This document shows positions 3,182 to 35,569 of a stretch of 64,000 bases of DNA, piece after piece. Made by a program: the position numbers and the translations under genes. Origin of the DNA: Chloroflexota bacterium (lineage in GTDB: Bacteria; Chloroflexota; Anaerolineae; Anaerolineales; Villigracilaceae). How positions within the stretch are numbered: the first letter of the stretch is position 1; each line of letters opens with the position of its first letter. A model generated the notes under the pieces. That model was not told where the DNA came from. It made no database searches and saw only the letters and a list, made by a program, of their open reading frames with translations. Location: contig JBDTWO010000001.1 of NCBI GenBank assembly GCA_040006635.1, positions 25,998 to 89,997 on the forward strand, written 5' to 3'.

Positions 3182-3598
3182 ATGCCTGCGCGAACTCTGA
3201 AGAAAAGCAAGTCTGCTATATTGAAGAAGAAAGTGGGGGAAACACGCTCTGTCTATCAGGTGCGTCCTAAACTCGCGTCTACGCCCCGTCGAAATTTGAT
3301 AGCTCAAAAATGCAAAGCTGTTTTGGCGAATTATTATGGCAAGCGCCTCAAAAACGTGATTCTCTACGGCTCTACCGCGCGTGGACAAGCCAGCCGCACA
3401 AGCGATATTGATCTGCTTATCCTTCTCACTCCTCCCTTGGATTATTTCACGGAATTGCGCCAACTCGTGGATATTCTATACCCTGTTCAACTTGAATCAG
3501 AAAAATTAATCTCAGCAAAGCCTGTATCGGTAAAAGATTTTGAATTAGGAAGTATATCTTTATATCGAAATGCAAAACGGGAAGGGGTAGCCGTATAA
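3182..3598 (+). CDS. Minimal nucleotidyltransferase (MNT antitoxin of the MNT-HEPN type)
   Basis: ILYGSTARG...SDIDLLIL motif; its stop overlaps the next ATG (TAATG). Confidence 0.88.
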   Translation: MPARTLKKSKSAILKKKVGETRSVYQVRPKLASTPRRNLIAQKCKAVLANYYGKRLKNVILYGSTARGQASRTSDIDLLILLTPPLDYFTELRQLVDILYPVQLESEKLISAKPVSVKDFELGSISLYRNAKREGVAV

Positions 3599-3643
3599 TG
3601 ACCCATAACTCTGACGAAATCAACGCCAACATACAACGCGCCC
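3598..3643 (+). pseudogene. 5' remnant of a HEPN toxin gene, truncated by stacked hairpin elements
   Basis: MTHNSDEINANIQRA resembles the first helix of MNT-paired HEPN proteins; the sequence then becomes palindromic repeat. Confidence 0.5.
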
Positions 3644-3753
3644 GCACGACGATAAACCGTCGTGCTACACGTACAAAGTCCGCTCAAAGCGGACTAGCCG
3701 ACTTCAATCGGCTTCGTACCGCGAAGCGTAGCATGGGCGTTCACGTCCGTGCG
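3644..3753. repeat. Stacked-hairpin REP-like element (related copy at 43621-43696)
   Basis: Hairpins GCACGACG/CGTCGTGC, AGTCCGCT/AGCGGACT, AGCCGA/TCGGCT and GCATGGGCG/CGTCCGTGC; 3672-3753 aligns to 43621-43696. Confidence 0.8.
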
Positions 3754-3797
3754 GACAAACGCCAATCACAAATTACTTGGGCAACAAAGAGGCAACC

Positions 3798-6320
3798 ATG
3801 AAAGTCTTCCTCAGCTCCACATACATTGATTTAGTTGAACATCGCAAAGCCGCGCACGAGGCATTGGAACGGCTCGGACAAGAAGTTGGGCGCATGGAAA
3901 TCTTTGGTGCACGCGATGGCGAAGCAACAACTATCGCACTTGACCAACTTGAAAAGAGCGACCTTATCGTTGGGATTTACGCCTATCGTTACGGATTTAT
4001 CCCTGAAGGTGCGGACATTTCCATCACGGAGCAGGAGTACGTTCATGCCAAAAGCAAAGGCAAATCTGTTTTATGTTTTGTTGTAAACGAAGACCACCCT
4101 TGGTCTCCTAAAATGATGGAAAAGGATGCGGGGAAAATCAAAAAGTTGGAAGATTTCAAAGCAAAGATCTTGAAAGAGAAAGTTGTCGACTTTTTTACTA
4201 CTCCTGCCGACTTGGCAATGAAAATCGCTACCTCAGTTCATAATTATCTTGAAGAACACAAACCACTTGTTGATCCTCAACCAGCAATCACCAATCACCT
4301 ATTACCCAAGCCCACAGGTTCCACACTCCCTCACCAGGAATTTTTCTTCGGTCGCGCGGACGAACTCAAAACCATCGCCGCTGCTCTTTCACCAGATACG
4401 CGTGCATGGGGCGCACTCATTGACGGACCTGGCGGCATCGGAAAAACCGCGCTCGCCATCAAAGCCGCGCACGATGCACCTAAAGAACTATTCGAGCGCA
4501 AAATTTTCATCACCGCCAAAGTACGCGAACTGACCGCCGAAGGCGAAGCCAAACTGACCGACTTCACCCGCCCGACCTACCTCGCCATGCTGGACGAACT
4601 GGGCAAGGAATTGGGCACAGACGGACTCGAAAAACTCGCGCCCGATGAGCGTCCCAACGAACTGCGCCTCGCGCTGGCGGGCAAGAAGGCGCTGATCATC
4701 TTCGACAATTTGGAAACCCTGCCCGAAGAAGAACGGACGCGCCTGTTCCAATTCATCTCGCGCCTGCCCGAAGGCAACAAAGCCATCGTCACCTCCCGCC
4801 GACGGGCAGACGTGGACGCGCGCATCGTGCGCCTCGACCGCCTCGCCCGTGACGAAGCCCTGCAACTCATCGCCGAACTTGCTACAAAATATCCGCGCCT
4901 TGCCCGCGCTTCCCAAAAAGAGCGCGAAGACCTGTACGAGATCACGCAGGGCAACCCTCTCTTCATCCGCTGGATTGCGGGGCAGTTGGGGCGCGCAGGC
5001 TCACAATGCCGCACCATCGCCGAAGCCTGCGTCTTCATTGACAAAGCCCCCAAAGGCAACGAACCGCTCGAATACATCTTCGGCGACCTGCTGGAGACCT
5101 TCACCGCCGACGAGACGAAAGTCCTCGCCGCACTGACGTATTTCAGCCTGCCCGCCAAACTCAAGTGGATCGCAGATATGACGACCCTGCCCGAACGCGC
5201 CGCCGAAACCGCGCTCGAAGATTTAACAGATCGCTCGATCCTAATATCGAATATCGAATCTCGAACTTTCTTTTTACCCCCGCTGACAGCGAAATTCATC
5301 CGCACCCGCCGTCCCGAAGCCGTGTCCCAAACAGGCGACGCCCTCACCGACCGCGCCTACGCCCTCGCCATGCAATACGGTGGAAACGACAATTACGAAG
5401 GCTTCCGCACACTGGACGTTGAATGGGATTTCGTCTCCGCTGCCCTGCCGCGCTTACTGATTGGCGACAACGACCGCCTGCAAACGGTGTGCTATCAACT
5501 CTTTCGCTTTCTTTATTTTTCGGGCAGATGGGATGATTTGATATGGCTCAATGAACAAGCTGAAACGCGAGCACTTGCCATCAACGCTAAAGAGCAGGCT
5601 GGCTGGCGGGCAATTCAAGTGGGATGGGCTTTTTTCCTTCGCGACCAACCTGCCGAAGTTCTGGCTTGCGCGGCGCGCGCTACCGAACACTTGCAAGACA
5701 GTTCGCCGCATAACAAAGCAAGTGCCATCCAAATGCGTGGACATGGTCACCTAATAGACGGAGACAATGCTGCCGCCATTGCAGCATATCGCGAAGCATT
5801 GGAAATACACCGTTCTATCTCACCTGAAAGTGACAATGTCGCAATTGTTCTAAACTGGCTAGCTAATGCAGAAAGCAACCACGGAGATTATGATGACGCC
5901 GAGCGCGACTACCGCGAAGCCCTGCGCATTGCGAAGATCATCAAAAACGATGAGAGCACTGCCATTTATACAGGCAACTTGGCAGGACTTGCCCTCGACC
6001 GCGAACAATGGGCAGAAGCCGAGTCCCTTGCCCGCGAAGCCCTCACACTGGCAGAAAAAGTTGGGCGCCAAGAAGAATTTGCTACAGAGAGTCACCGCCT
6101 CGCCAAAGCCCTGCTCGAGCAAAGTAGGTCACGCTTCCAGCGTGACGAACCGCCCGATGAAGAAGAAAAGTCACGTCAAAGACGTGACCTACAGGAAGCC
6201 ACCCTGAGCGAAGCCGAAGGGCTGTCCCGCCGCGCCGTCGAGATTTACACGCGCCTGCGTCATTCCAGTTTGCAGTCAGCGCAGAAAATGCTGGAGGAGA
6301 TCGAGAAAGCAATGAAATAA
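3798..6320 (+). CDS. NLR-like protein: DUF4062 (TIR-like) + STAND/NB-ARC NTPase + wHTH + TPR
   Basis: KVFLSSTYxDL, RYG and TEQEY (DUF4062); Walker A GPGGIGKT, Walker B LIIFDNLE, IVTSR, GNPL; C-terminal TPR-like repeats. Start placed at ATG 3798 after an AGAGG RBS. Confidence 0.85.
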   Translation: MKVFLSSTYIDLVEHRKAAHEALERLGQEVGRMEIFGARDGEATTIALDQLEKSDLIVGIYAYRYGFIPEGADISITEQEYVHAKSKGKSVLCFVVNEDHPWSPKMMEKDAGKIKKLEDFKAKILKEKVVDFFTTPADLAMKIATSVHNYLEEHKPLVDPQPAITNHLLPKPTGSTLPHQEFFFGRADELKTIAAALSPDTRAWGALIDGPGGIGKTALAIKAAHDAPKELFERKIFITAKVRELTAEGEAKLTDFTRPTYLAMLDELGKELGTDGLEKLAPDERPNELRLALAGKKALIIFDNLETLPEEERTRLFQFISRLPEGNKAIVTSRRRADVDARIVRLDRLARDEALQLIAELATKYPRLARASQKEREDLYEITQGNPLFIRWIAGQLGRAGSQCRTIAEACVFIDKAPKGNEPLEYIFGDLLETFTADETKVLAALTYFSLPAKLKWIADMTTLPERAAETALEDLTDRSILISNIESRTFFLPPLTAKFIRTRRPEAVSQTGDALTDRAYALAMQYGGNDNYEGFRTLDVEWDFVSAALPRLLIGDNDRLQTVCYQLFRFLYFSGRWDDLIWLNEQAETRALAINAKEQAGWRAIQVGWAFFLRDQPAEVLACAARATEHLQDSSPHNKASAIQMRGHGHLIDGDNAAAIAAYREALEIHRSISPESDNVAIVLNWLANAESNHGDYDDAERDYREALRIAKIIKNDESTAIYTGNLAGLALDREQWAEAESLAREALTLAEKVGRQEEFATESHRLAKALLEQSRSRFQRDEPPDEEEKSRQRRDLQEATLSEAEGLSRRAVEIYTRLRHSSLQSAQKMLEEIEKAMK
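6124..6221. repeat. Two REP-like elements inside the NLR reading frame
   Basis: 69-bp element GTAGGTCACGC...GACGTGACCTAC (6124-6192) and CCCTGAGCGAAGCCGAAGGG (6202-6221). Confidence 0.75.
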
Positions 6321-25643: not shown

Positions 25644-26576
25644 GTGACAGAGATAAGCAGTGAAACCCGCTTTTTACACGCGGTTGAAATGGGGCTCGGC
25701 GCCTGGCAATGGGGCGACCGGATGGTCTGGCAATATGGACAGGGCTACGGTGACGAAGATGTGCACAAGGCGTTTTTAGCCAGCGTGAATGAGGGCATAC
25801 GCTTCGTAGATACGGCTGAAGTGTATGGGAGCGGGCGGTCAGAACGCTTGCTGGGAGAGTTTCTCAAGCAAACCGATCAACCGATCCTGGTAGCAACAAA
25901 GTATGCGCCCATGCCCTGGAGATTCGGGAAGAAGGCTGTGCCCAATGCACTGAAGGCAAGTCTTGAGCGGCTGGGTGGTGAAAGTGTGGATTTGTATCAG
26001 ATCCATTTTCCCGGCATGACGATGAGTACCGACACACTGATGGAAGGCTTATCAGAGTGCGTAAAGAGTGGCATGACGCGGACCGTAGGCGTCTCAAACT
26101 TTGGGCAGACACTCATGCTGGCGGCTTACTCGGCACTGGCACGGCAGAATATTCCGCTGGCTTCGAATCAGGTCCACTATAGTTTATTGAACCGCACGAT
26201 AGAGAAAGACGGCACGTTGGCACGCTGTAAAGAGCTTGGTATCCGTTTGATCGCTTATAGCCCGCTGGAGAAAGGTTTGCTCAGCGGGAAATACAGTCCG
26301 AGTAACCCGCCCTCAGGTGTACGCAACCGTGAATATGCTAAATTGCTCACAAAGATCCAACCTTTGATCAATTTGTTGACCACGATCGGGCAGGACCATG
26401 GCGGCAAGACTAATGCACAGGTGGCATTGAACTGGACGATCTGTAAGGGCACACTCCCGATCCCCGGCGCAAAAAATGAAAGTCAAGCCCATCAAAACGC
26501 TGGCGCCCTCGGCTGGAAGTTAACCGATGACGAGGTCGCAAAACTGGACGAGGCTAGTGATCTGGTTATGGGATAG
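25644..26576 (+). CDS. Aldo/keto reductase
   Basis: GLGAWQWGD, DTAEVYG, VATK, DLYQIH, GVSNF, IAYSPL, IPGAK; GTG start after GGAGG. Confidence 0.93.
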   Translation: MTEISSETRFLHAVEMGLGAWQWGDRMVWQYGQGYGDEDVHKAFLASVNEGIRFVDTAEVYGSGRSERLLGEFLKQTDQPILVATKYAPMPWRFGKKAVPNALKASLERLGGESVDLYQIHFPGMTMSTDTLMEGLSECVKSGMTRTVGVSNFGQTLMLAAYSALARQNIPLASNQVHYSLLNRTIEKDGTLARCKELGIRLIAYSPLEKGLLSGKYSPSNPPSGVRNREYAKLLTKIQPLINLLTTIGQDHGGKTNAQVALNWTICKGTLPIPGAKNESQAHQNAGALGWKLTDDEVAKLDEASDLVMG

Positions 26577-26610
26577 CAAAACCGCCCGCTGATTGCGGGC
26601 GGTTTTGCTA
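26574..26610. terminator. Bidirectional terminator
   Basis: TAGCAAAACCGCCCGC / GCGGGCGGTTTTGCTA. Confidence 0.85.
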
Positions 26611-26622
26611 ACTGTATCCGTA

Positions 26623-27012
26623 CTATTCCTTCATTCTGGGTTTCAAGAACAACATAAATCCATAACCAAGAGAGGAAAGTGCAAAAAGCACGATCGGTAT
26701 CCAACCATTGATACGGACTACGCCGCTAGCCGGGGAGACACCGATGATAACCACAACCAATCCAATAATTGAGCTGACGAACATGACCACGCCCATCTGT
26801 TTTTGAATATTGGCATCGGGGATATTTTTCGCAAACCACAAAAGTAATCCAATGGTGAAGGCTGCCAATCCAAAGAGACGCGCTACAAAGATCGTCGCCG
26901 CATACTTCTCTGTGCCAAACTGATCCAATCCAATAGCGGGGACAAATAACAGGGCTAACCCAACAACAATTGCAACAAGCGCATTCAGTACGAACAACAC
27001 TTTATAACCCAT
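26623..27012 (-). CDS. Four-TM hypothetical membrane protein
   Basis: AGGAG RBS; four hydrophobic segments. Confidence 0.75.
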   Translation of the reverse strand: MGYKVLFVLNALVAIVVGLALLFVPAIGLDQFGTEKYAATIFVARLFGLAAFTIGLLLWFAKNIPDANIQKQMGVVMFVSSIIGLVVVIIGVSPASGVVRINGWIPIVLFALSSLGYGFMLFLKPRMKE

Positions 27013-27172
27013 TTGATTCTCCTTGTATGAAGTATGGGAACGACAGAATAAATATACAACATTTAAGAACGGATTGGAGACGGTTATAAAACAAAATACC
27101 TTACATCAGCCTTACATTCAGCAAGGAACCTCAAGTAAAATTAGTCAACTTTTATTCATAAGGAGAACATCT

Positions 27173-27610
27173 ATGGATCCTATTGCTATCTTGACCGGTT
27201 TAGTAAGTGCACTTGGAGGTTTATTGGGTTTGTTTGGGGGATTATGTGCGTGCATTGTGCCGGTGGTTTTACTCATTGGCTTTGGTATATTCATGTATCG
27301 CCGCAATCAGCAGGGACAGGCGGCAAAACAAGCCGCACAAGCCTGGCCCGGTACAATGGGAACCGTGTTATCGTCCAGTGTGGAATCGCGCCGGACAGGC
27401 AACAGCATGTCGACGTATCCCGTTGTTGTATATCAATATCAAGTGAACGGACAGGTTTATCAAGGTCAAACAATTAAGGCTGGCGAACAATTCTTCAATG
27501 TGCGTGTGATCGGAGATGCGCAAGCTACCGCTGCGCGCTACCAGGTTGGTGCGCAGGTGATGGTTTATTACAACCCTGCCAACCCGCAAGAATCCGCACT
27601 GGAAAGATAA
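27173..27610 (+). CDS. DUF3592-family membrane protein
   Basis: TM helix, W..T.GTV, YPVVVYQYQVNG, VxYNPxNPxxSxL; start ATG 27173 after AAGGAG. Confidence 0.85.
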   Translation: MDPIAILTGLVSALGGLLGLFGGLCACIVPVVLLIGFGIFMYRRNQQGQAAKQAAQAWPGTMGTVLSSSVESRRTGNSMSTYPVVVYQYQVNGQVYQGQTIKAGEQFFNVRVIGDAQATAARYQVGAQVMVYYNPANPQESALER

Positions 27611-27615
27611 TCCTG

Positions 27616-27624
27616 TGCTATAAT
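27616..27624 (+). promoter_or_regulatory. Extended -10 promoter of the aspS leader
   Basis: TGCTATAAT (TGn-TATAAT) ending 9 nt before the leader ATG. Confidence 0.7.
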
Positions 27625-27633
27625 GCCGCCATT

Positions 27634-27717
27634 ATGAAATATGGTCTACCCTTCGCCAATAATAGCAATAATAATGATAATGACGATGATCCTTATCGTT
27701 GGGCGAAGCATTGCTAG
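27634..27717 (+). CDS. Asn/Asp-rich leader peptide MKYGLPFANNSNNNDNDDDPYRWAKHC
   Basis: Manual translation; 6 Asn + 4 Asp in 11 consecutive codons; directly upstream of aspS-gatCAB. Confidence 0.8.
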   Translation: MKYGLPFANNSNNNDNDDDPYRWAKHC

Positions 27718-27780
27718 TTGACGGATAACTCAAGTCACACCAAATCGCCCAACGCAAATCGCGAAGGGCGATTTATTTTA
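27651..27780 (+). promoter_or_regulatory. Transcription attenuator (anti-antiterminator / antiterminator / terminator)
   Basis: CTTCGCC 27651-57 pairs with GGCGAAG 27702-08; CGTTGGGCGA 27697-706 pairs perfectly with TCGCCCAACG 27745-54; AAATCGCCC 27742-50 pairs with GGGCGATTT 27766-74, followed by ATTTTA. Confidence 0.8.
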
Positions 27781-27797
27781 TCTACATCACACTACCC

Positions 27798-27879
27798 GTC
27801 ATTGCGAGAAGCCCAAAGGGCGACGAAGCAATCTCACCTTAGCGAGGAGATTGCTTCGGGCTAACGCCCTCGCAATGAC
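27798..27879. repeat. Complete GTCATTGCGAG...CTCGCAATGAC REP element
   Basis: Terminal inverted repeat plus internal GAAGCAATCTC / GAGATTGCTTC. Confidence 0.9.
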
Positions 27880-27902
27880 AGACAAAACTCTGGAGGCAAA
27901 CC

Positions 27903-29666
27903 ATGTACAGAACACACACTTGCGGAGAATTACGCGCCAGCCATGCGGGACAAACCGTCACACTCGCTGGCTGGGTCAATCGTCGCCGCGATCACGGCGG
28001 AGTGGCATTTTTTGATCTGCGCGACCGTACCGGACTCGTCCAAATCACGATCAATCCAGATTTGTCAAAAGAAGTTTTGGATCAGGTTGTCAATGTCCGC
28101 TTTGAGTGGGTTCTGCAGATCGAAGGACTCGTCCAGAAGCGACCTGAAGGCATGTCGAATCCCAAAATGGAAACCGGCGAGATTGAGATCATCGCCAAGA
28201 ACATCACGATCTTGAATCCTGCCAAGACCCTACCCTTCATGGTCAGCTCAGACGCCGATCTGCCCGATGAAAACACACGCCTCAAATATCGCTATCTCGA
28301 TTTGCGCCGCGAGCGTCTGACTCGTAATATGATATTGCGTCACAAGGTCATCAAGTTCATGCGTGACTATCTCGATAAGCAGGGCTTCATCGAGATCGAA
28401 ACGCCCATTATGTTCAAAGCGACTCCCGAGGGCGCGCGCGACTATCTCGTTCCGTCTCGTCTCAACCCAGGACAGTTCTATGCGCTACCTCAGTCACCCC
28501 AGCAGTTGAAGCAATTGCTCATGGTCGCAGGCATGGACAAGTATTTCCAGATCGCGCGTTGTTTCCGTGACGAAGATTTGCGCGGCGACCGTCAACCCGA
28601 GTTCACGCAACTTGATTTGGAAATGTCCTATGTTCACCGCGATGATGTGTTGGCGCTGGTCGAAGGTTTGTATACAGCGATGCTTCCTGAAGTCGCGCCA
28701 CATAAAAAATTACTTTCTTCGCCTTGGAAAAAAATCCCGTATCTTGAGGCGTTGGATAAATATGGATCAGATAAACCTGACCTGCGCTTCGGCATGGAAT
28801 TGATCAACGTCTCGGATATTTTTGCTAAAAGCGAATTCCGCGTCTTTCAATCTACGCTGGAAGCTGGTGGCGTGATCAAATGCATTATCGCCCCTCGATC
28901 AGCAGACATGTCCCGCAAGGAAGTGGACGCGCTCACAGAAGTGGCGAAGTCGTTTGGAGCGAAGGGTATGCCCACGTTGGCAGTAACAGCTGAAGGCGTG
29001 AAAGGAAGCGCGGCAAAGTTTGTGACGGCAGAAGAAGTCGAAGCATTGAAGTCCAAAACGGGGGCAGGAGTCGGCGATCTCATCGTCTTTGCAACTGATA
29101 CAAAAGTTATCGCAAACAAAACGCTCGGCGGGTTACGTCTGTGGTTCCGTGATAAATTGGATCTGGCAGACAAAGATATGATGGCGTTCGCATGGGTCTT
29201 GGATTTCCCGTTCTTTGCGTACAATGAAGAAACGAAGACTTGGGAATCGGAACATCATCCGTTCACGATGCCGAAGATGGAAGACCTGCCGAAGTTCGAT
29301 ACTGACCCGGGCGCAGTGATGTCGGATGCATATGACATGGTGTGCAACGGCTATGAGTTGGCTTCGGGTTCGATCCGTATTCATCGCCGTGATATTCAAA
29401 TGAAGATGTTCCAGATGCTTGGGCTGAGTGACGAAGATATTCAGGCGAAGTTCGGTCATATGCTCGAAGCGTTTGAATATGGCGCACCTCCACACGGCGG
29501 CATGGCGCCCGGGATTGACCGTCTTATTATGCTCCTCGCGGACGAACCCAACATCCGCGAAGTAATTGCCTTCCCCAAGAATCAAGCGGGACGCGATGTG
29601 ATGGCGGATGCACCGTCTGCAGTTGAGCCGAAGCAGTTGAAAGAGCTGCATATTAAATTCGAATAG
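27903..29666 (+). CDS. aspS: Aspartyl-tRNA synthetase, likely non-discriminating (Asp/Asn)
   Basis: [42 protein letters not shown]. The anticodon domain has DHGG (His) and RPEG (Gly), the residues associated with non-discriminating enzymes. Confidence 0.97.
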
Positions 29667-29688
29667 CGTCATTGCGAGGAGTTAATTC

Positions 29689-30495
29689 ATGACAATCCGT
29701 GTTTGTCTCGCAGGTGCAACTGGATGGGCAGGCTCAGCCGTTGCACGCGCCATCGCTCAACTTGACGATATTACACTTGTGTCTGCGATATCACGCACTC
29801 ATGCTGGAAAAAATTTAGGCGACGTGCTGGCAGAGCCGCGCCTGACTTGCAAAGTATATGCAACCGCGGAGGAAGCACTCTCAGCGCAGCCGTGTGATGT
29901 GTTCTTCGAGTTCACAAAACCAGACGCAGCAAAGTCAAATGTGTTGACCGCATTACAGCATGGAGTTCATGTCGTCATTGGCACATCGGGATTAACCGAC
30001 TCAGACTACGCTGAGATTGCTTCAGCTGCCAAGCAGTCTCAACGCGGTGTGTTGGCTGTTGGCAACTTTGCACTAACCGTTGTCTTGTTGCAAAAATTCT
30101 CTGAAATCGCCGCTAGATTTATCCCTCAATGGGAGATCATTGATTATGCCAGCGACAGTAAAAAAGATGCACCGAGTGGAACCGTACGTGAAATGGCTTA
30201 TCGGCTTTCAAAGATTCGTGAGTCGGAAATGACCGTTCCATTGGAGGAAACCAAAGGTGTTGTCGAAACTCGCGGTGCACGGATGACTGGCTCGCAAGTA
30301 CATTCCATCCGCTTGCCGGGATATACTATCTCAGCCGAAATCATTTTCGGCATGCCAGATCAAAAGCTGACCATCCGCCACGACTCAGGTAGCAGCGCCC
30401 AACCTTATGTGGATGGCTCCCTACTGGCAATTCGCAAGGTCAATACATTTATCGGTCTGCGCCGCGGATTGGATAGTGTGCTTGATTTATCGTAG
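29689..30495 (+). CDS. dapB: 4-hydroxy-tetrahydrodipicolinate reductase-like protein
   Basis: GATGWAG Rossmann fold, VVIGTSG, KKDAPSGT, HSIRLPG; the HH before K..DAPSGT is missing. Confidence 0.75.
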   Translation: MTIRVCLAGATGWAGSAVARAIAQLDDITLVSAISRTHAGKNLGDVLAEPRLTCKVYATAEEALSAQPCDVFFEFTKPDAAKSNVLTALQHGVHVVIGTSGLTDSDYAEIASAAKQSQRGVLAVGNFALTVVLLQKFSEIAARFIPQWEIIDYASDSKKDAPSGTVREMAYRLSKIRESEMTVPLEETKGVVETRGARMTGSQVHSIRLPGYTISAEIIFGMPDQKLTIRHDSGSSAQPYVDGSLLAIRKVNTFIGLRRGLDSVLDLS

Positions 30496-30603: not shown

Positions 30604-30903
30604 ATGACCCAAACAATAGACACCAAAACCGTCAAGCACACCGCCTACCTCGTCCGCCTCGGAATCTCCGAAGAGGAAGCGCAAAAGTTCAGTGGACAGT
30701 TCTCTTCCATCATTGACTACTTCAACATGCTCAACGAAGTGGATACAGACAACGTCCCGCCTGCCTCGGACATCGCCAATGCTGAGAATGTTCTGCGTGA
30801 AGATGTGGTCAAGCCATCCATGAGCCGCGAAGAATTTCTCAAGAACGCTCCGAACTCCGAACGCGGCTATGTCAAAGTGCCGACGGTCTTGGGCGATGAG
30901 TAA
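30604..30903 (+). CDS. gatC: Asp/Glu-tRNA amidotransferase subunit C
   Basis: VKHTAYLVRL, NVLRED, YVKVP; upstream of gatA. Confidence 0.93.
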   Translation: MTQTIDTKTVKHTAYLVRLGISEEEAQKFSGQFSSIIDYFNMLNEVDTDNVPPASDIANAENVLREDVVKPSMSREEFLKNAPNSERGYVKVPTVLGDE

Positions 30904-31011: not shown

Positions 31012-32472
31012 ATGCAACTACATAACCTCACCATCCGCGAAGCACACCAATTACTAATTACCAAACAAATCTCCTCCGTCGAACTGACTCAGGCGATGCT
31101 CGACCGCATCCACGATATAGACTCCAAGGTCAAATCCTACGTCACCGTCACGGACGAGCTCGCGCTTGAACAAGCCAGGCAAGCCGATGAGCGTCTCGCC
31201 AAAGGCGACAACGTCACACCGCTGACAGGTATCCCCTTCTCGATGAAGGACTGCATCTCCACGCGTGATGTCCGCACGACATGCTCCTCGAAGATTCTTG
31301 AAAACTATGTTCCGCAATACAACGCCACCGTCACGAACAAACTCGCGGACGCAGGCGCTGTCCTCGTTGGCAAGACCAACATGGACGAGTTCGGTATGGG
31401 TTCATCGTGCGAAAACTCAGCATTCTTCAATACACATAATCCATGGAATCTCGACCATGTCCCCGGTGGTTCGAGCGGTGGTGCGGCGGCGAGCATGTCT
31501 GCCAGTCTCGCGACCTTTGCCATCGGCGAAGACACAGGCGGGTCAGTCCGCATGCCCGCGGGATTTTGTAACGTCACAGGCATCAAGCCCACGTACGGAC
31601 GTGTCTCACGCTATGGTCTGATCGCGCTCGCCTCATCCTTCGATTGCATCGGACCTCTTACCCACGACGCCTATGATTGCGCAACTGTCCTCCAAGCCAT
31701 CGCAGGTCATGATCCTCACGATAGCACCACTTACAAATTACCAGTTCCCAATTACATCGCAAACATTGACAAGCCCGTCAAAGGCATGAAGCTCGGCATT
31801 CCCAAAGAATATTTCGTCGCAGGCATGGAAGCGGGCGTCGAGTCCGCCATGCAAGAAGCCATTCGTCAATTTGAAAAACTCGGCATGGAGATTCACGAGG
31901 TCTCACTCCCCCACACCAAATACGGTCTGCCCGTTTATTATCTACTGCTCTTTGCCGAAGCCAGCGCCAACCTCTCCCGCATGGACGGCACGCGCTTCGG
32001 TCTCTCCGTTTCGGATGGCGCGAAAGATGTCATCGACATCTACCTCCAAACCCGCCACGAGGGATTCGGTGACGAAGTCAAACGCAGGATTATGCTTGGA
32101 GCATACGCGTTATCCGCTGGATATTACGACGCGTATTACTTGAAGGCTCAAAAAGTGCGCACGCTTCTGCGCCGGGACTTTGAGTCTGCCTTTGCCTACG
32201 TAGACGTTCTCCTCGCCCCGACCTGTCCCACCACCGCCTTCAAACTCGGCGAAAAGACCAGCGACCCGCTCGAAATGTATCTCTCCGATATTTACGTGGT
32301 TGCGACCAACCCTGCGGGTGTCCCTGCATTAGCGCTCCCCGCTGGCTTCTCCAAAGATATGCCTGTCGGCATGCAACTCATCGGCAAACACTTGGACGAA
32401 CAAACATTATTCCAAGTCGCTCATGCCTATCAGCAAGTCACTGACTGGCATAAGCAGTTGCCAAATCTTTAG
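31012..32472 (+). CDS. gatA: Asp/Glu-tRNA amidotransferase subunit A
   Basis: KTNMDEFGMGSS, GGSSGG, DTGGSVRMPA, KRRIMLG. Confidence 0.97.
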   Translation: MQLHNLTIREAHQLLITKQISSVELTQAMLDRIHDIDSKVKSYVTVTDELALEQARQADERLAKGDNVTPLTGIPFSMKDCISTRDVRTTCSSKILENYVPQYNATVTNKLADAGAVLVGKTNMDEFGMGSSCENSAFFNTHNPWNLDHVPGGSSGGAAASMSASLATFAIGEDTGGSVRMPAGFCNVTGIKPTYGRVSRYGLIALASSFDCIGPLTHDAYDCATVLQAIAGHDPHDSTTYKLPVPNYIANIDKPVKGMKLGIPKEYFVAGMEAGVESAMQEAIRQFEKLGMEIHEVSLPHTKYGLPVYYLLLFAEASANLSRMDGTRFGLSVSDGAKDVIDIYLQTRHEGFGDEVKRRIMLGAYALSAGYYDAYYLKAQKVRTLLRRDFESAFAYVDVLLAPTCPTTAFKLGEKTSDPLEMYLSDIYVVATNPAGVPALALPAGFSKDMPVGMQLIGKHLDEQTLFQVAHAYQQVTDWHKQLPNL

Positions 32473-33041: not shown

Positions 33042-33083
33042 ATCTGTTTATCCGTTTTGCGAAGCAATCCGCTCGCCTACGGA
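33041..33083. repeat. ATCCGT-type short repeat element (related copy at 62180-62226)
   Basis: AATCTGTTTATCCGTTTTGCGAAGCAATCCG versus AATCCGTTTATCCGTTATGCGAAGCCATCCG. Confidence 0.65.
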
Positions 33084-33568
33084 TTATCATAAACGTAGAA
33101 AATATAATCCTGAGATTTTGTCTCGACACCCAGATCATGTAATACTCTGAGAAGCTGAGCGCGATGATCAGTGGCATGATTGGCAACATGCAGAAGCACT
33201 TGCCACGCAATAAGATCTTTATCTTCATCAGGTTCTGTTATCGGTTTGGAAAACAACATATCGTCACGTAAGTCGTCGGCAAGGTACGCGCGGATCTTTT
33301 GCTCAACATCATCCCAATATGTGCGGATGGGATCTCGGTCATCAGTGTCGACGGCAGGCAACGGTTCCATTGGTCTGAAAGCACGCAGTTCGCTGAACCA
33401 CATTTGTTCCGCGTCAATGAGATGAACGATTTGGTCTCGAACAGACCCGTGAGAGTAATCCACAGCTTGAGTGAACTGCTCAAAGGATAGCGTAGCGACA
33501 TGCTTCCACACTACGCGGTTTTCGGCAAAGTGATAGTTGTAAAAATGACGGAAGGCATCTGCATTCAT
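33077..33568 (-). CDS. DinB/YfiT-family metalloprotein
   Basis: SVRDQIVHL, HVANHATDHRAQ His motifs. Confidence 0.9.
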   Translation of the reverse strand: MNADAFRHFYNYHFAENRVVWKHVATLSFEQFTQAVDYSHGSVRDQIVHLIDAEQMWFSELRAFRPMEPLPAVDTDDRDPIRTYWDDVEQKIRAYLADDLRDDMLFSKPITEPDEDKDLIAWQVLLHVANHATDHRAQLLRVLHDLGVETKSQDYIFYVYDNP

Positions 33569-34120: not shown

Positions 34121-35569
34121 ATGACCCAATACGAACCAGTGATCGGACTTGAAATTCACGGCGAACTGCTCACCAACTCCAAAATGTTCTGCAGTTGTTC
34201 TGCCGACTATGGCTCCGCACCTGAACCGAACACGAACATCTGCCCCACGTGCACAGGTCTGCCTGGCGCGATGCCCGTTGTCAACAAAAAGGCGACCGAG
34301 CTCGCCGCGCTCGTCGGGCTCGCGTTGAACTGTTCCATTAACAAGCACAATACTTTCGCGCGCAAAAATTATTATTATCCTGATCTGCCGAAGGGTTATC
34401 AGATCTCGCAGTATGAGTTGCCGATTGCAGAAAAAGGCTGGATGGACGTATTGGCTGATTCCGAGGATCAACTTCGGGTGAGAGTGAGGCGGGTTCACAT
34501 CGAAGAAGATACTGCCAAACTATCCCACGAAAAAAATTATGCGCTCGTCGATTTCAATCGCGCAGGCGTCCCGTTGCTTGAGATCGTCTCCGAGCCAGAC
34601 ATCCGCACCGTTGAAGCCGCGCTCGATTACGCCACGAAGATCCGCGCCATCTTGCGTTATCTCGGCGTCAACTCGGGCGACATGGAAAAAGGCGTCCTGC
34701 GTTTCGAAGCGAACATTTCCGTGCGCCCCGTCGGCAGTGACGAGTTCCGCACGCGCACCGAAATAAAAAACCTCAACAGTTTCCGCGCGCTCACGCGTGC
34801 CTCGGCATATGAGATCGAACGCCAGATCAAAGTGTACGAAGCCGGCGGAACCGTGGCGCAGGAAACGCTCGGCTGGGACGATGTGCGCGGCGTGACCGTC
34901 TCACAGCGCGGCAAGGAAGAGGCGCACGACTACCGCTACTTCCCCGAACCCGACCTGCCCCCGCTCCAACTTTCGGATGCGTGGATCGATTCGATTCGGA
35001 CTCAACTGCCCGAACTGCCCGAAGCCAAGACAGCACGCTTCATCACAGACTTCAGCCTGACTCCGTCCGAAGCGCGTTTTCTTACATCCGAACTTTCGCT
35101 TGCGGACTACTTCGAGAGCGTCGTCGCCAAATCGAAGAGCCCTGCCAAGACTATCCACTCTTGGATCGCAGGCGAGTTCATGCGCAACCTCAACGACCTG
35201 AGCATTGATATCGCAAACATCTCCGTTGACCCCAGCGACCTCGCCCAACTCATTGACATGACAACCGATAAGGTCATCAACAACAACGCGGGCAAAACTG
35301 TGCTGGCAGAGATGTTCAAAAACGGCGGTAAACCCGAGCAGATCGTCAAAGAGAAAAATCTGGCGCAGGTCTCTGATGAAGGTTTTATCAAGCAAGCGAT
35401 TGAAAAAGCTTTGAACGACAATCCCAAAGAACTGGAACAATATTTCGCTGGCAAAGAGACTCTCCTGCAATGGTTCATGGGGCAAGTCGCCCGCGCCACC
35501 AAAGGCAAAGCCGATCCGAATGTGACGAAGGAGTTGCTGGTCAAGGCGTTGGAAGAGAGAAGAAAGTGA
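34121..35569 (+). CDS. gatB: Asp/Glu-tRNA amidotransferase subunit B
   Basis: IGLEIH, RKNYYYPDLPKGYQISQY, NRAGVPLLEIV, YRYFPEPDLP, FMGQVARAT.GKADP. Confidence 0.97.
   Translation: MTQYEPVIGLEIHGELLTNSKMFCSCSADYGSAPEPNTNICPTCTGLPGAMPVVNKKATELAALVGLALNCSINKHNTFARKNYYYPDLPKGYQISQYELPIAEKGWMDVLADSEDQLRVRVRRVHIEEDTAKLSHEKNYALVDFNRAGVPLLEIVSEPDIRTVEAALDYATKIRAILRYLGVNSGDMEKGVLRFEANISVRPVGSDEFRTRTEIKNLNSFRALTRASAYEIERQIKVYEAGGTVAQETLGWDDVRGVTVSQRGKEEAHDYRYFPEPDLPPLQLSDAWIDSIRTQLPELPEAKTARFITDFSLTPSEARFLTSELSLADYFESVVAKSKSPAKTIHSWIAGEFMRNLNDLSIDIANISVDPSDLAQLIDMTTDKVINNNAGKTVLAEMFKNGGKPEQIVKEKNLAQVSDEGFIKQAIEKALNDNPKELEQYFAGKETLLQWFMGQVARATKGKADPNVTKELLVKALEERRK

Follow-up and report, generated by a model that had tools for sequence, protein, structure and literature searches.

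Upstream of aspS, in the 64,000-nt stretch of Chloroflexota DNA that was analysed (the window), lies a short leader that we read as a ribosome-mediated, trp-type transcription attenuator with Asn and Asp regulatory codons, with a probability of roughly 0.8. From the sequence we infer the translation of the leader, the start of transcription, the stalling of the ribosome and the response to starvation. The original prediction had called the element a classical Asn/Asp leader-peptide attenuator before aspS, and comparative analysis lends this proposal strong support through conservation in relatives, the codon pattern and the covariation of the antiterminator.

The candidate promoter is an extended -10 box, TGTGCTATAAT (27614-27624), which includes the TGnTATAAT-type motif TGCTATAAT at 27616-27624 and begins 4 nt past the stop codon (27608-27610) of the upstream neighbour, a DUF3592 gene (27023-27610). 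All features of the leader described here, as well as the genes of the aspS cluster, are on the forward strand. The leader ORF (27634-27717) encodes MKYGLPFANNSNNNDNDDDPYRWAKHC in 27 codons: ATG AAA TAT GGT CTA CCC TTC GCC AAT AAT AGC AAT AAT AAT GAT AAT GAC GAT GAT CCT TAT CGT TGG GCG AAG CAT TGC TAG. Its ATG (27634) is located 9 nt past the -10 box, and the putative mRNA is thus near-leaderless. Inspection of the sequence revealed no Shine-Dalgarno sequence ahead of this ATG, hence translation of the leader would depend on leaderless or near-leaderless initiation. Ten of 11 consecutive codons (27658-27690; NNSNNNDNDDD) specify Asn or Asp, with 6 Asn and 4 Asp codons, and 6 nt separate the end of this run from the core of segment 2. 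The extended -10 box, the 27-codon near-leaderless ORF, the 6 Asn and 4 Asp codons and the T tail were all found where the original prediction had placed them.

Segment 1 is composed of two parts, segment 1a (CTTCGCC, 27651-27657), with its partner at 27702-27708, and segment 1b (TGACGAT, 27681-27687), which covers the last Asp codons and pairs in the RNAalifold consensus with ATCGTTG at 27695-27701. Both partners lie in segment 2 (ATCGTTGGGCGAAG, 27695-27708), for which segments 1a/1b and segment 3 are alternative partners. The UAG stop codon (27715-27717) follows 7 nt past segment 2. Between the stop codon and segment 3 there is a small spacer hairpin (TTGAC...GTCA, 27718-27740), whose sequence is variable among relatives. 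Segment 3 (27742-27755) is the 5′ arm of the putative terminator, and its nucleotides 27745-27754 double as the 3′ arm of the antiterminator. Segment 4 (GCGAAGGGCGATTT, 27761-27774), the 3′ arm of the terminator, runs into the T-rich tail TTTATTTTAT (27772-27781), where GGGCGATTTATTTT is nearly invariant among relatives.

The three mutually exclusive pairings that had been proposed (1:2, 2:3 and 3:4) were recovered exactly. The 1:2 pairing is formed by CTTCGCC and GGCGAAG (27651-27657 with 27702-27708, 7 bp), plus an inner 7-bp 1b:2 helix. In the 2:3 antiterminator, CGTTGGGCGA pairs with TCGCCCAACG (27697-27706 with 27745-27754) over 10 bp, with 100% complementarity. In the 3:4 terminator, AAATCGCCC pairs with GGGCGATTT (27742-27750 with 27766-27774) over 9 bp; the structure also has an upper CGC/GCG stem and is followed by ATTTTAT. 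The calculated local energies were -15.7 kcal/mol for 1:2, -20.7 kcal/mol for 2:3 and -18.3 kcal/mol for 3:4, and the fold of the leader was better than that of 200 out of 200 dinucleotide shuffles (z = -2.95).

In the proposed mechanism, transcription would start a few bases past the extended -10 box, and a near-leaderless AUG would open the 27-codon leader. With an ample supply of both Asn-tRNA(Asn) and Asp-tRNA(Asp), the ribosome would reach the UAG codon and cover segment 2, leading to formation of the 3:4 terminator, and RNA polymerase would stop at ∼27775-27781. A shortage of either charged tRNA would make the ribosome stall within NNSNNNDNDDD, where it would cover segments 1a and 1b and leave segment 2 free. 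Segment 2 would then pair with segment 3 (10 bp, -20.7 kcal/mol) before segment 4 is transcribed, the terminator would be blocked, and transcription would proceed into aspS-dapB-gatC-gatA. If the leader is not translated, 1:2 would form and transcription would terminate.

Masked folds, in which a ribosome was placed at different codons, are consistent with much of this scheme. With the ribosome at the first Asp codon, segment 2 was free and the antiterminator was the MFE structure, and with the ribosome at the stop codon the terminator formed. It had been predicted that a stall on the Asn codons frees 2:3. With the ribosome at the early Asn codons the two outcomes were nearly tied (-29.8 for the terminator and -28.8 for the antiterminator, at equilibrium), so that the attenuation argument depends on the kinetic order of folding. 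A ribosome at the last Asp codon covered the first part of segment 2, which favoured the terminator; the earlier proposal was that stalls on the last Asp codons may partly mask segment 2. Given this ambiguity at both ends of the run, the middle of the N/D run is probably the effective sensing part in these models.

To learn how widely the element is distributed, aspS was located in 40 relatives and the DNA upstream of each was read. In nearly all genomes of the same genus the architecture is the same: TGTGCTATAAT, an ATG 9-13 nt further on, ..FANNNNNDNDD.., CGTTGGGCGAAG, ATCGCCCAACG and GAAGGGCGATTTATTTT. An alignment of 15 genus-level sequences revealed no variation in any letter of the -10 box, in the ATG, in most of the run or in segments 2-4; the variable parts are the first leader codons, between the ATG and the run, and the spacer. 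The leader stop codon of the relatives is at the equivalent position or 3 nt beyond, in either reading frame.

A covariance model (R1) built from this 15-sequence alignment matched 73 of the 301 genomes of the order Anaerolineales, spread over 34 of 102 genera. In the window's own family, leaving the window's genome aside, it matched 28 of the 30 genomes sampled. The element is almost always present in a single copy in the genomes that carry it. Weaker or more distant R1 matches (E up to 0.007) were fetched in 35 cases, and all 35 were directly upstream of aspS. One candidate was rejected as a false positive: L076 (G036 C140, E = 0.007) is no more than a plain terminator. A broader covariance model, run on 401 genomes of the phylum, gave no match beyond the order. 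Exact-pattern matches in genome contigs include Anaerolineales, Anaerolineaceae and Anaerolinea, with one motif (L176) in a MAG labelled Anaerolinea thermophila; pattern-scan matches in G+C-rich taxa (Pseudomonas, Streptomyces) were set aside as chance matches. The conserved N/D-rich upstream ORF that the original prediction called for was found in ∼80 relatives, and its retention in so many genomes rules out a chance origin. This comparison indicates that the element is not a product of chance.

The element begins so close to the upstream stop codon (4 nt), and its AAT/GAT repeats are of such low complexity, that one might assign the hairpin and T tail to the DUF3592 gene as its intrinsic terminator, and regard the N/D ORF as a chance frame in an A+T-rich spacer. 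This explanation was rejected because the upstream genes are not shared among relatives, and we give it practically no weight. From one relative to the next, the DNA 5′ of the -10 box is unrelated and the genes upstream differ too, whereas conservation begins exactly at the -10 box. The element always accompanies aspS or asnA, and in some families the T tail is only 12-13 nt ahead of the aspS ATG. The substitution pattern by codon position and the covariation of 2:3, both described below, also argue against a DUF3592 terminator.

The regulatory run changes as codons would. In its 7 core codons, across the 15 sequences, position 2 is invariantly A, position 3 is T or C only and position 1 is A or G only, such that the only substitutions are AAT/AAC, GAT/GAC or an exchange of Asn and Asp. 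Across the runs of 83 scored leaders, 606 of 687 codons specify Asn (433) or Asp (173). These results indicate that the N/D run is under selection as codons. Segment 2 behaves in another way: the conserved block ATCGTTGGGCGAAGC is read as ..YRWAK.. in some genomes, this one included, and as ..IVGRS.. in most others. Its nucleotides are thus kept across two reading frames, which places the conservation at the nucleotide level.

The codon pattern bears on a second alternative, in which the element would be an RNA switch that needs no translation (a riboswitch-like or T-box-like binder of tRNA or of a metabolite, or a site for an RNA-binding protein) and the ORF would be incidental. T-boxes and riboswitches also deliver their output through terminator/antiterminator alternatives, aspS and asnS are T-box targets in Firmicutes, and the leader has no Shine-Dalgarno sequence. 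However, a search of 26500-29000 with Rfam cmscan at E ≤ 10 returned no family overlapping 27616-27780, T-box (RF00230) included. Moreover, the ATG is invariant, the run changes only synonymously or between Asn and Asp, and no conserved structured aptamer is apparent, the region from the ATG to the run being variable. The Asn-only and the Asn plus Asp versions of the element match asnA and aspS, respectively (see below). We therefore consider a translation-independent switch very unlikely, and a translated attenuator remains the preferred reading.

The three helices were then compared among relatives. In the 15 genus-level sequences, pairing was 93% for 1:2, 98.7% for 2:3 and 94% for 3:4. Of the covarying stems that had been expected, 2:3 covaries (see below) and the upper stem of the 3:4 terminator shows compensatory changes, but covariation was not seen for the 1:2 helix in these 15 relatives. 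In more divergent leaders, the sequence that links the run to the stop codon was tested, one leader at a time, for pairing with the 5′ terminator arm. For 73 of the 81 leaders, the segment 2/segment 3 duplex was better than that of 200 shuffles (p ≤ 0.05; median z = -3.3), with duplex energies ranging from -19 to -33 kcal/mol.

The alignment fitted to the covariance model mis-registers segment 2 in distant families, and 2:3 was not counted on it. Covariation of 2:3 was scored on an alignment of 58 distinct sequences with the GGGCG and CGCCC cores as anchors; L005, L073, L084 and L107, where the anchors were wrongly placed, were left out. One 2:3 pair in this alignment is U-A in 24 sequences, C-G in 21 and U-G in 13, and is mispaired in none. 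The 2:3 covariation score was 0.165, compared with 0.128±0.009 in shuffles, none of 500 of which reached it, and it was well above the score of every slid register. Doubly changed cells in the helix numbered 45, versus 20.4±5.2 in shuffles. A position of segment 3 covaries with both segment 2 and segment 4, and such three-way covariation is the prediction of mutually exclusive helices. Taken across relatives, these data indicate that the 2:3 antiterminator is maintained in evolution and is exclusive with the terminator.

A second copy of the element was found in 4 genomes, upstream of asnA (TIGR00669 above cut-off), and these copies score 66-89 bits with the broader model. The asnA paralogue resembles the aspS leader in its -10 box, the ..FAN.. 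motif, the N run, GGCGTTGGGCGAAGC and a CGCCC...GGGCG terminator. It differs in the codons of its run and in preceding the gene for an aspartate-ammonia ligase. Four asnA leaders (L072-L075) have 7-10 Asn and zero Asp codons in the run (MSTIRFANVNNNNNNNGL.., MFDYSFANFNNNNNNAV..); a fifth (L175) is also rich in Asn but includes one Asp codon. On one contig both types occur in tandem, in the order Asn-rich leader, asnA, Asn/Asp leader, aspS and asnS. Asp codons are present in 75 of 79 aspS leaders, with at least 2 in 57 of them. With Asn only before asnA, and Asn plus Asp before aspS, the codon content tracks the regulated gene, and the codons of each leader match what its operon supplies.

We also weighed the hypothesis that the aspS leader senses Asn-tRNA(Asn) only, the Asp codons being there mainly to provide the GACGAU of segment 1b, or as a result of one-step drift between Asn and Asp. 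In its favour, the last Asp codons pair with segment 2, a stall at the final Asp codon would mask part of segment 2 and favour termination, Asn exceeds Asp in the runs (433 versus 173), and the paralogous asnA leaders make do with Asn. If the Asp codons served mainly the pairing, however, their prevalence in aspS leaders would not be expected to extend to families with a different segment 1b, as it does, nor would four asnA runs be without Asp despite an otherwise homologous RNA scaffold (GGCGTTGGGCGAAGC). In addition, it is a stall at the first Asp codon that frees segment 2 and makes the antiterminator the MFE structure. An Asn-only sensor is thus unlikely, though it deserves more credit than the two explanations considered above, and we favour an attenuator that reads both Asn and Asp codons.

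The first gene predicted to be regulated is aspS (27903-29666), which codes for a bacterial-type AspRS (NF001750, 840 bits). It is followed, 22 nt on, by the co-directional dapB (29689-30495; TIGR00036, 160.9 bits), and then by gatC (30604-30903), gatA (31012-32472) and an unassigned ORF. It is plausible that aspS-dapB-gatC-gatA form one transcription unit. The third amidotransferase gene, gatB (34121-35569), is also inside the window, after a HIT gene, but a DinB-family gene (33077-33568) on the opposite strand intervenes, and gatB is therefore probably outside the aspS transcript, on a separate one. The original prediction of a non-discriminating (ND) aspS-gatCAB operon consequently stands in part: gatC and gatA are co-directional with aspS, but dapB lies within the cluster and the antisense DinB gene precedes gatB. 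Among relatives, aspS is followed by asnS in many families, by gatC-gatA across much of this genus as well as in some other genera, and by an archaeal-type aspartate-tRNA(Asn) ligase (ND aspS) in the closest relative. All of these act on Asn-tRNA, so that the Asn codons are explained by Asn-tRNA formation in general and not by transamidation specifically.

In bacterial ND-AspRS, a His (RDHGG) and a Gly (PEG) of the anticodon domain are tied to tRNA(Asn) recognition, according to work on the Pseudomonas aeruginosa enzyme. The AspRS of the window carries RRRDHGG and RPEG, motifs that it shares with Asp/Asn ligases of known structure (4WJ3, 4RMF and 5W25); the Escherichia coli enzyme (1C0A) has RRRDLGS and RDEK, with Leu and Lys where the query has His and Gly. 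The ND-type His and Gly residues that had been pointed out are thus present, which is suggestive but not proof, and judged by these motifs an ND activity, i.e., the charging of tRNA(Asn) with Asp, is plausible.

The original prediction had suggested a check for the absence of asnS. The gene is present, on contig C23 (453 bits versus a cut-off of 342.6), hence the cell does not have to rely on the indirect route to charge tRNA(Asn). The genome also encodes glnS. An asnB-type gene scores above its cut-off; it lies directly after a glycosyltransferase-like ORF, as paralogues in polysaccharide clusters do, and for this reason may not be the housekeeping enzyme. Neither asnA nor an asnA-type copy of the leader was found in this genome (93% complete), where R1 has a single match, and no such leader is present upstream of its own asnS or asnB-like gene.

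In Thermus and Deinococcus, the tRNA-dependent route is the only source of Asn, asparagine synthetase being absent. We tentatively propose, as a possibility that we hold to be less probable than not, a small regulon of paralogous leaderless attenuators in Anaerolineales, matched in codons to their targets: Asn only for asnA, Asn plus Asp for aspS together with asnS, gatCA or an ND aspS, and Asn/Thr/Asp for an aspartate-family aminotransferase, with the Asn codons of the present leader reading the output of ND-AspRS and GatCAB. If true, the pathway would be under feedback control by its own end product, an amino acid that is made solely in the tRNA-bound state and would be sensed in that state. 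Such a feedback loop is suggested by the lack of asnA here and by the location of the only asnB-like gene in a polysaccharide-type cluster.

To our knowledge, ribosome-mediated attenuation is known for Trp, His, Phe, Leu, Thr and Ile/Val, and for the synthetase operon pheST; Asn and Asp are missing from this set. No description of an Asn or Asp leader-peptide attenuator was found in Rfam or in full-text searches of the literature. The element is analogous, not homologous, to the Rfam leader families (Trp_leader, His_leader, Thr_leader, Leu_leader and others). With trpL, hisL, thrL, leuL, pheL and the ilv leaders it shares the four-segment logic of 1:2, 2:3 and 3:4 pairings, regulatory codons at or just past segment 1, and a stop codon that lets the ribosome cover segment 2. 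The thrL and ilv leaders likewise mix codons for more than one amino acid. The classical leaders, in contrast, have biosynthetic operons as targets, and their Rfam models do not match this element. The nearest parallel in terms of target is E. coli pheST, where a leader peptide with cognate codons (pheM) and alternative hairpins also allow ribosome stalling to control a synthetase operon. There, however, the codons are for Phe, a Shine-Dalgarno sequence leads the leader, the host belongs to the Proteobacteria and no sequence relationship is apparent, whereas the present element is near-leaderless, has two kinds of regulatory codon and occurs in Chloroflexota (Anaerolineales).

The aspS/asnS T-boxes of Firmicutes serve an identical physiological end and have the same outcome, since uncharged tRNA leads to an antiterminator and to read-through into the synthetase gene; a T-box, however, binds the tRNA directly and needs no translation, whereas the sensor here would be a codon run that is presumably translated. 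In mycobacteria, leaderless polycysteine short ORFs attenuate downstream cysteine genes. They too are leaderless short ORFs with a run of cognate codons as amino-acid sensor, but they respond to cysteine, belong to another phylum and are not known to have a conserved pair of intrinsic terminator and antiterminator like the present one. We conclude that: i) the proposed mechanism is of a known kind, and ii) what would be new is its specificity for Asn and Asp, the genes that it targets, its occurrence in this phylum and its near-leaderless start.

As far as we know, the regulation of aspS, asnS and gatCAB is poorly understood outside the phyla that use T-boxes, and the attenuator proposed here provides a concrete, testable account of regulation in the aspS region for a large, mostly uncultured order of Chloroflexota. 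If our reading is true, attenuation would operate from a near-leaderless mRNA. The Asn-only copies before asnA and the Asn plus Asp copies before aspS offer a natural pair for studying the way in which the codons of an attenuator determine its specificity, and the element might be of use as a compact sensor part for the charging of Asn- and Asp-tRNA.

Two further observations concern the DNA around the leader. Weak Rfam matches at 26533-26674 are unrelated to the element. In this genome, a 120-nt stretch separates the terminator from aspS, and it contains a palindromic repeat of 82 nt (27798-27879, no strand assigned) made of inverted repeats. The repeat is absent or different in relatives, and there are 69-79 occurrences of its end motifs in the genome, against an expectation of ∼1; the repeat is an insertion and not a component of the switch.

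Attenuators of the same general kind were also found before asnA, the gene for aspartate-ammonia ligase. In four loci from relatives (L072-L075, from genomes G041, G082, G010 and G220), asnA is preceded by paralogous leader attenuators with Asn as the only regulatory residue. The same gene also follows a paralogous attenuator with an Asn-rich leader in locus L175, where the Asn-rich leader and asnA are followed in tandem by an Asn/Asp(/His) leader, then aspS and then asnS.

In the relative's locus L015 (G006), the leader ORF upstream of aspS is split by an insertion of ∼90 nt within the N/D run, the stretch of regulatory codons. The insertion ends in imperfect terminal inverted repeats (TAGGGCTTACG...CGTAAGTCCTA), a target resembling AATAACGAT is duplicated, and a TAG is brought in after MKRQVFFANDNNND. 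It is a natural disruption of the putative sensor.

A candidate for a second leaderless attenuator was observed in the same genome, outside the window, at positions 21-245 of contig C108. Its promoter reads TTGACG-17-TGGTATCCT, with the ATG 8 nt downstream, and the predicted leader peptide, which begins with MFNQLVNNTDNTNRTTRTQTVTGRW, is high in Asn, Thr and Asp. The 5′ arm of the terminator (AAACGCCCCG...CGGGGCGTTTTT) is complementary to ACGGGGCGTTGG. The downstream gene codes for a class I/II aminotransferase that scored under every NCBIfam cut-off. The same promoter and similar leaders were present in at least four relatives (L240, L242, L246 and L248).

The sole asnB-type gene of the genome (contig C12, 7407-9077; 497 bits, over the cut-off) starts 7 nt after the end of a glycosyltransferase-like ORF, so that it may represent a paralogue from a polysaccharide cluster and not the housekeeping asparagine synthetase.

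The closest relative, L002 (G018), has an AspRS with 94% identity to that of the window. There, bacterial aspS is followed by a gene for an archaeal-type aspartate-tRNA(Asn) ligase (3196-4521; 502 bits against NF003483, over the cut-off) and then by dapB; the archaeal-type gene is absent from the window's own genome. The apparent gatCAB cluster of the window is split by a gene of the DinB family that runs in the opposite direction (33077-33568, minus strand) and lies between gatA with the unknown ORF and HIT-gatB.

Upstream of aspS, a palindromic repeat element (GTCATTGCGAG...CGAAGCAATCTC...GAGATTGCTTCG...CTCGCAATGAC) occupies positions 27798-27879 of the window. Its end motifs occur in 69-79 copies in the genome and its inner arms in 53-64, where ∼1 is expected in each case. 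Another copy of one of the end motifs begins at position 29668, 2 nt past the aspS stop codon.
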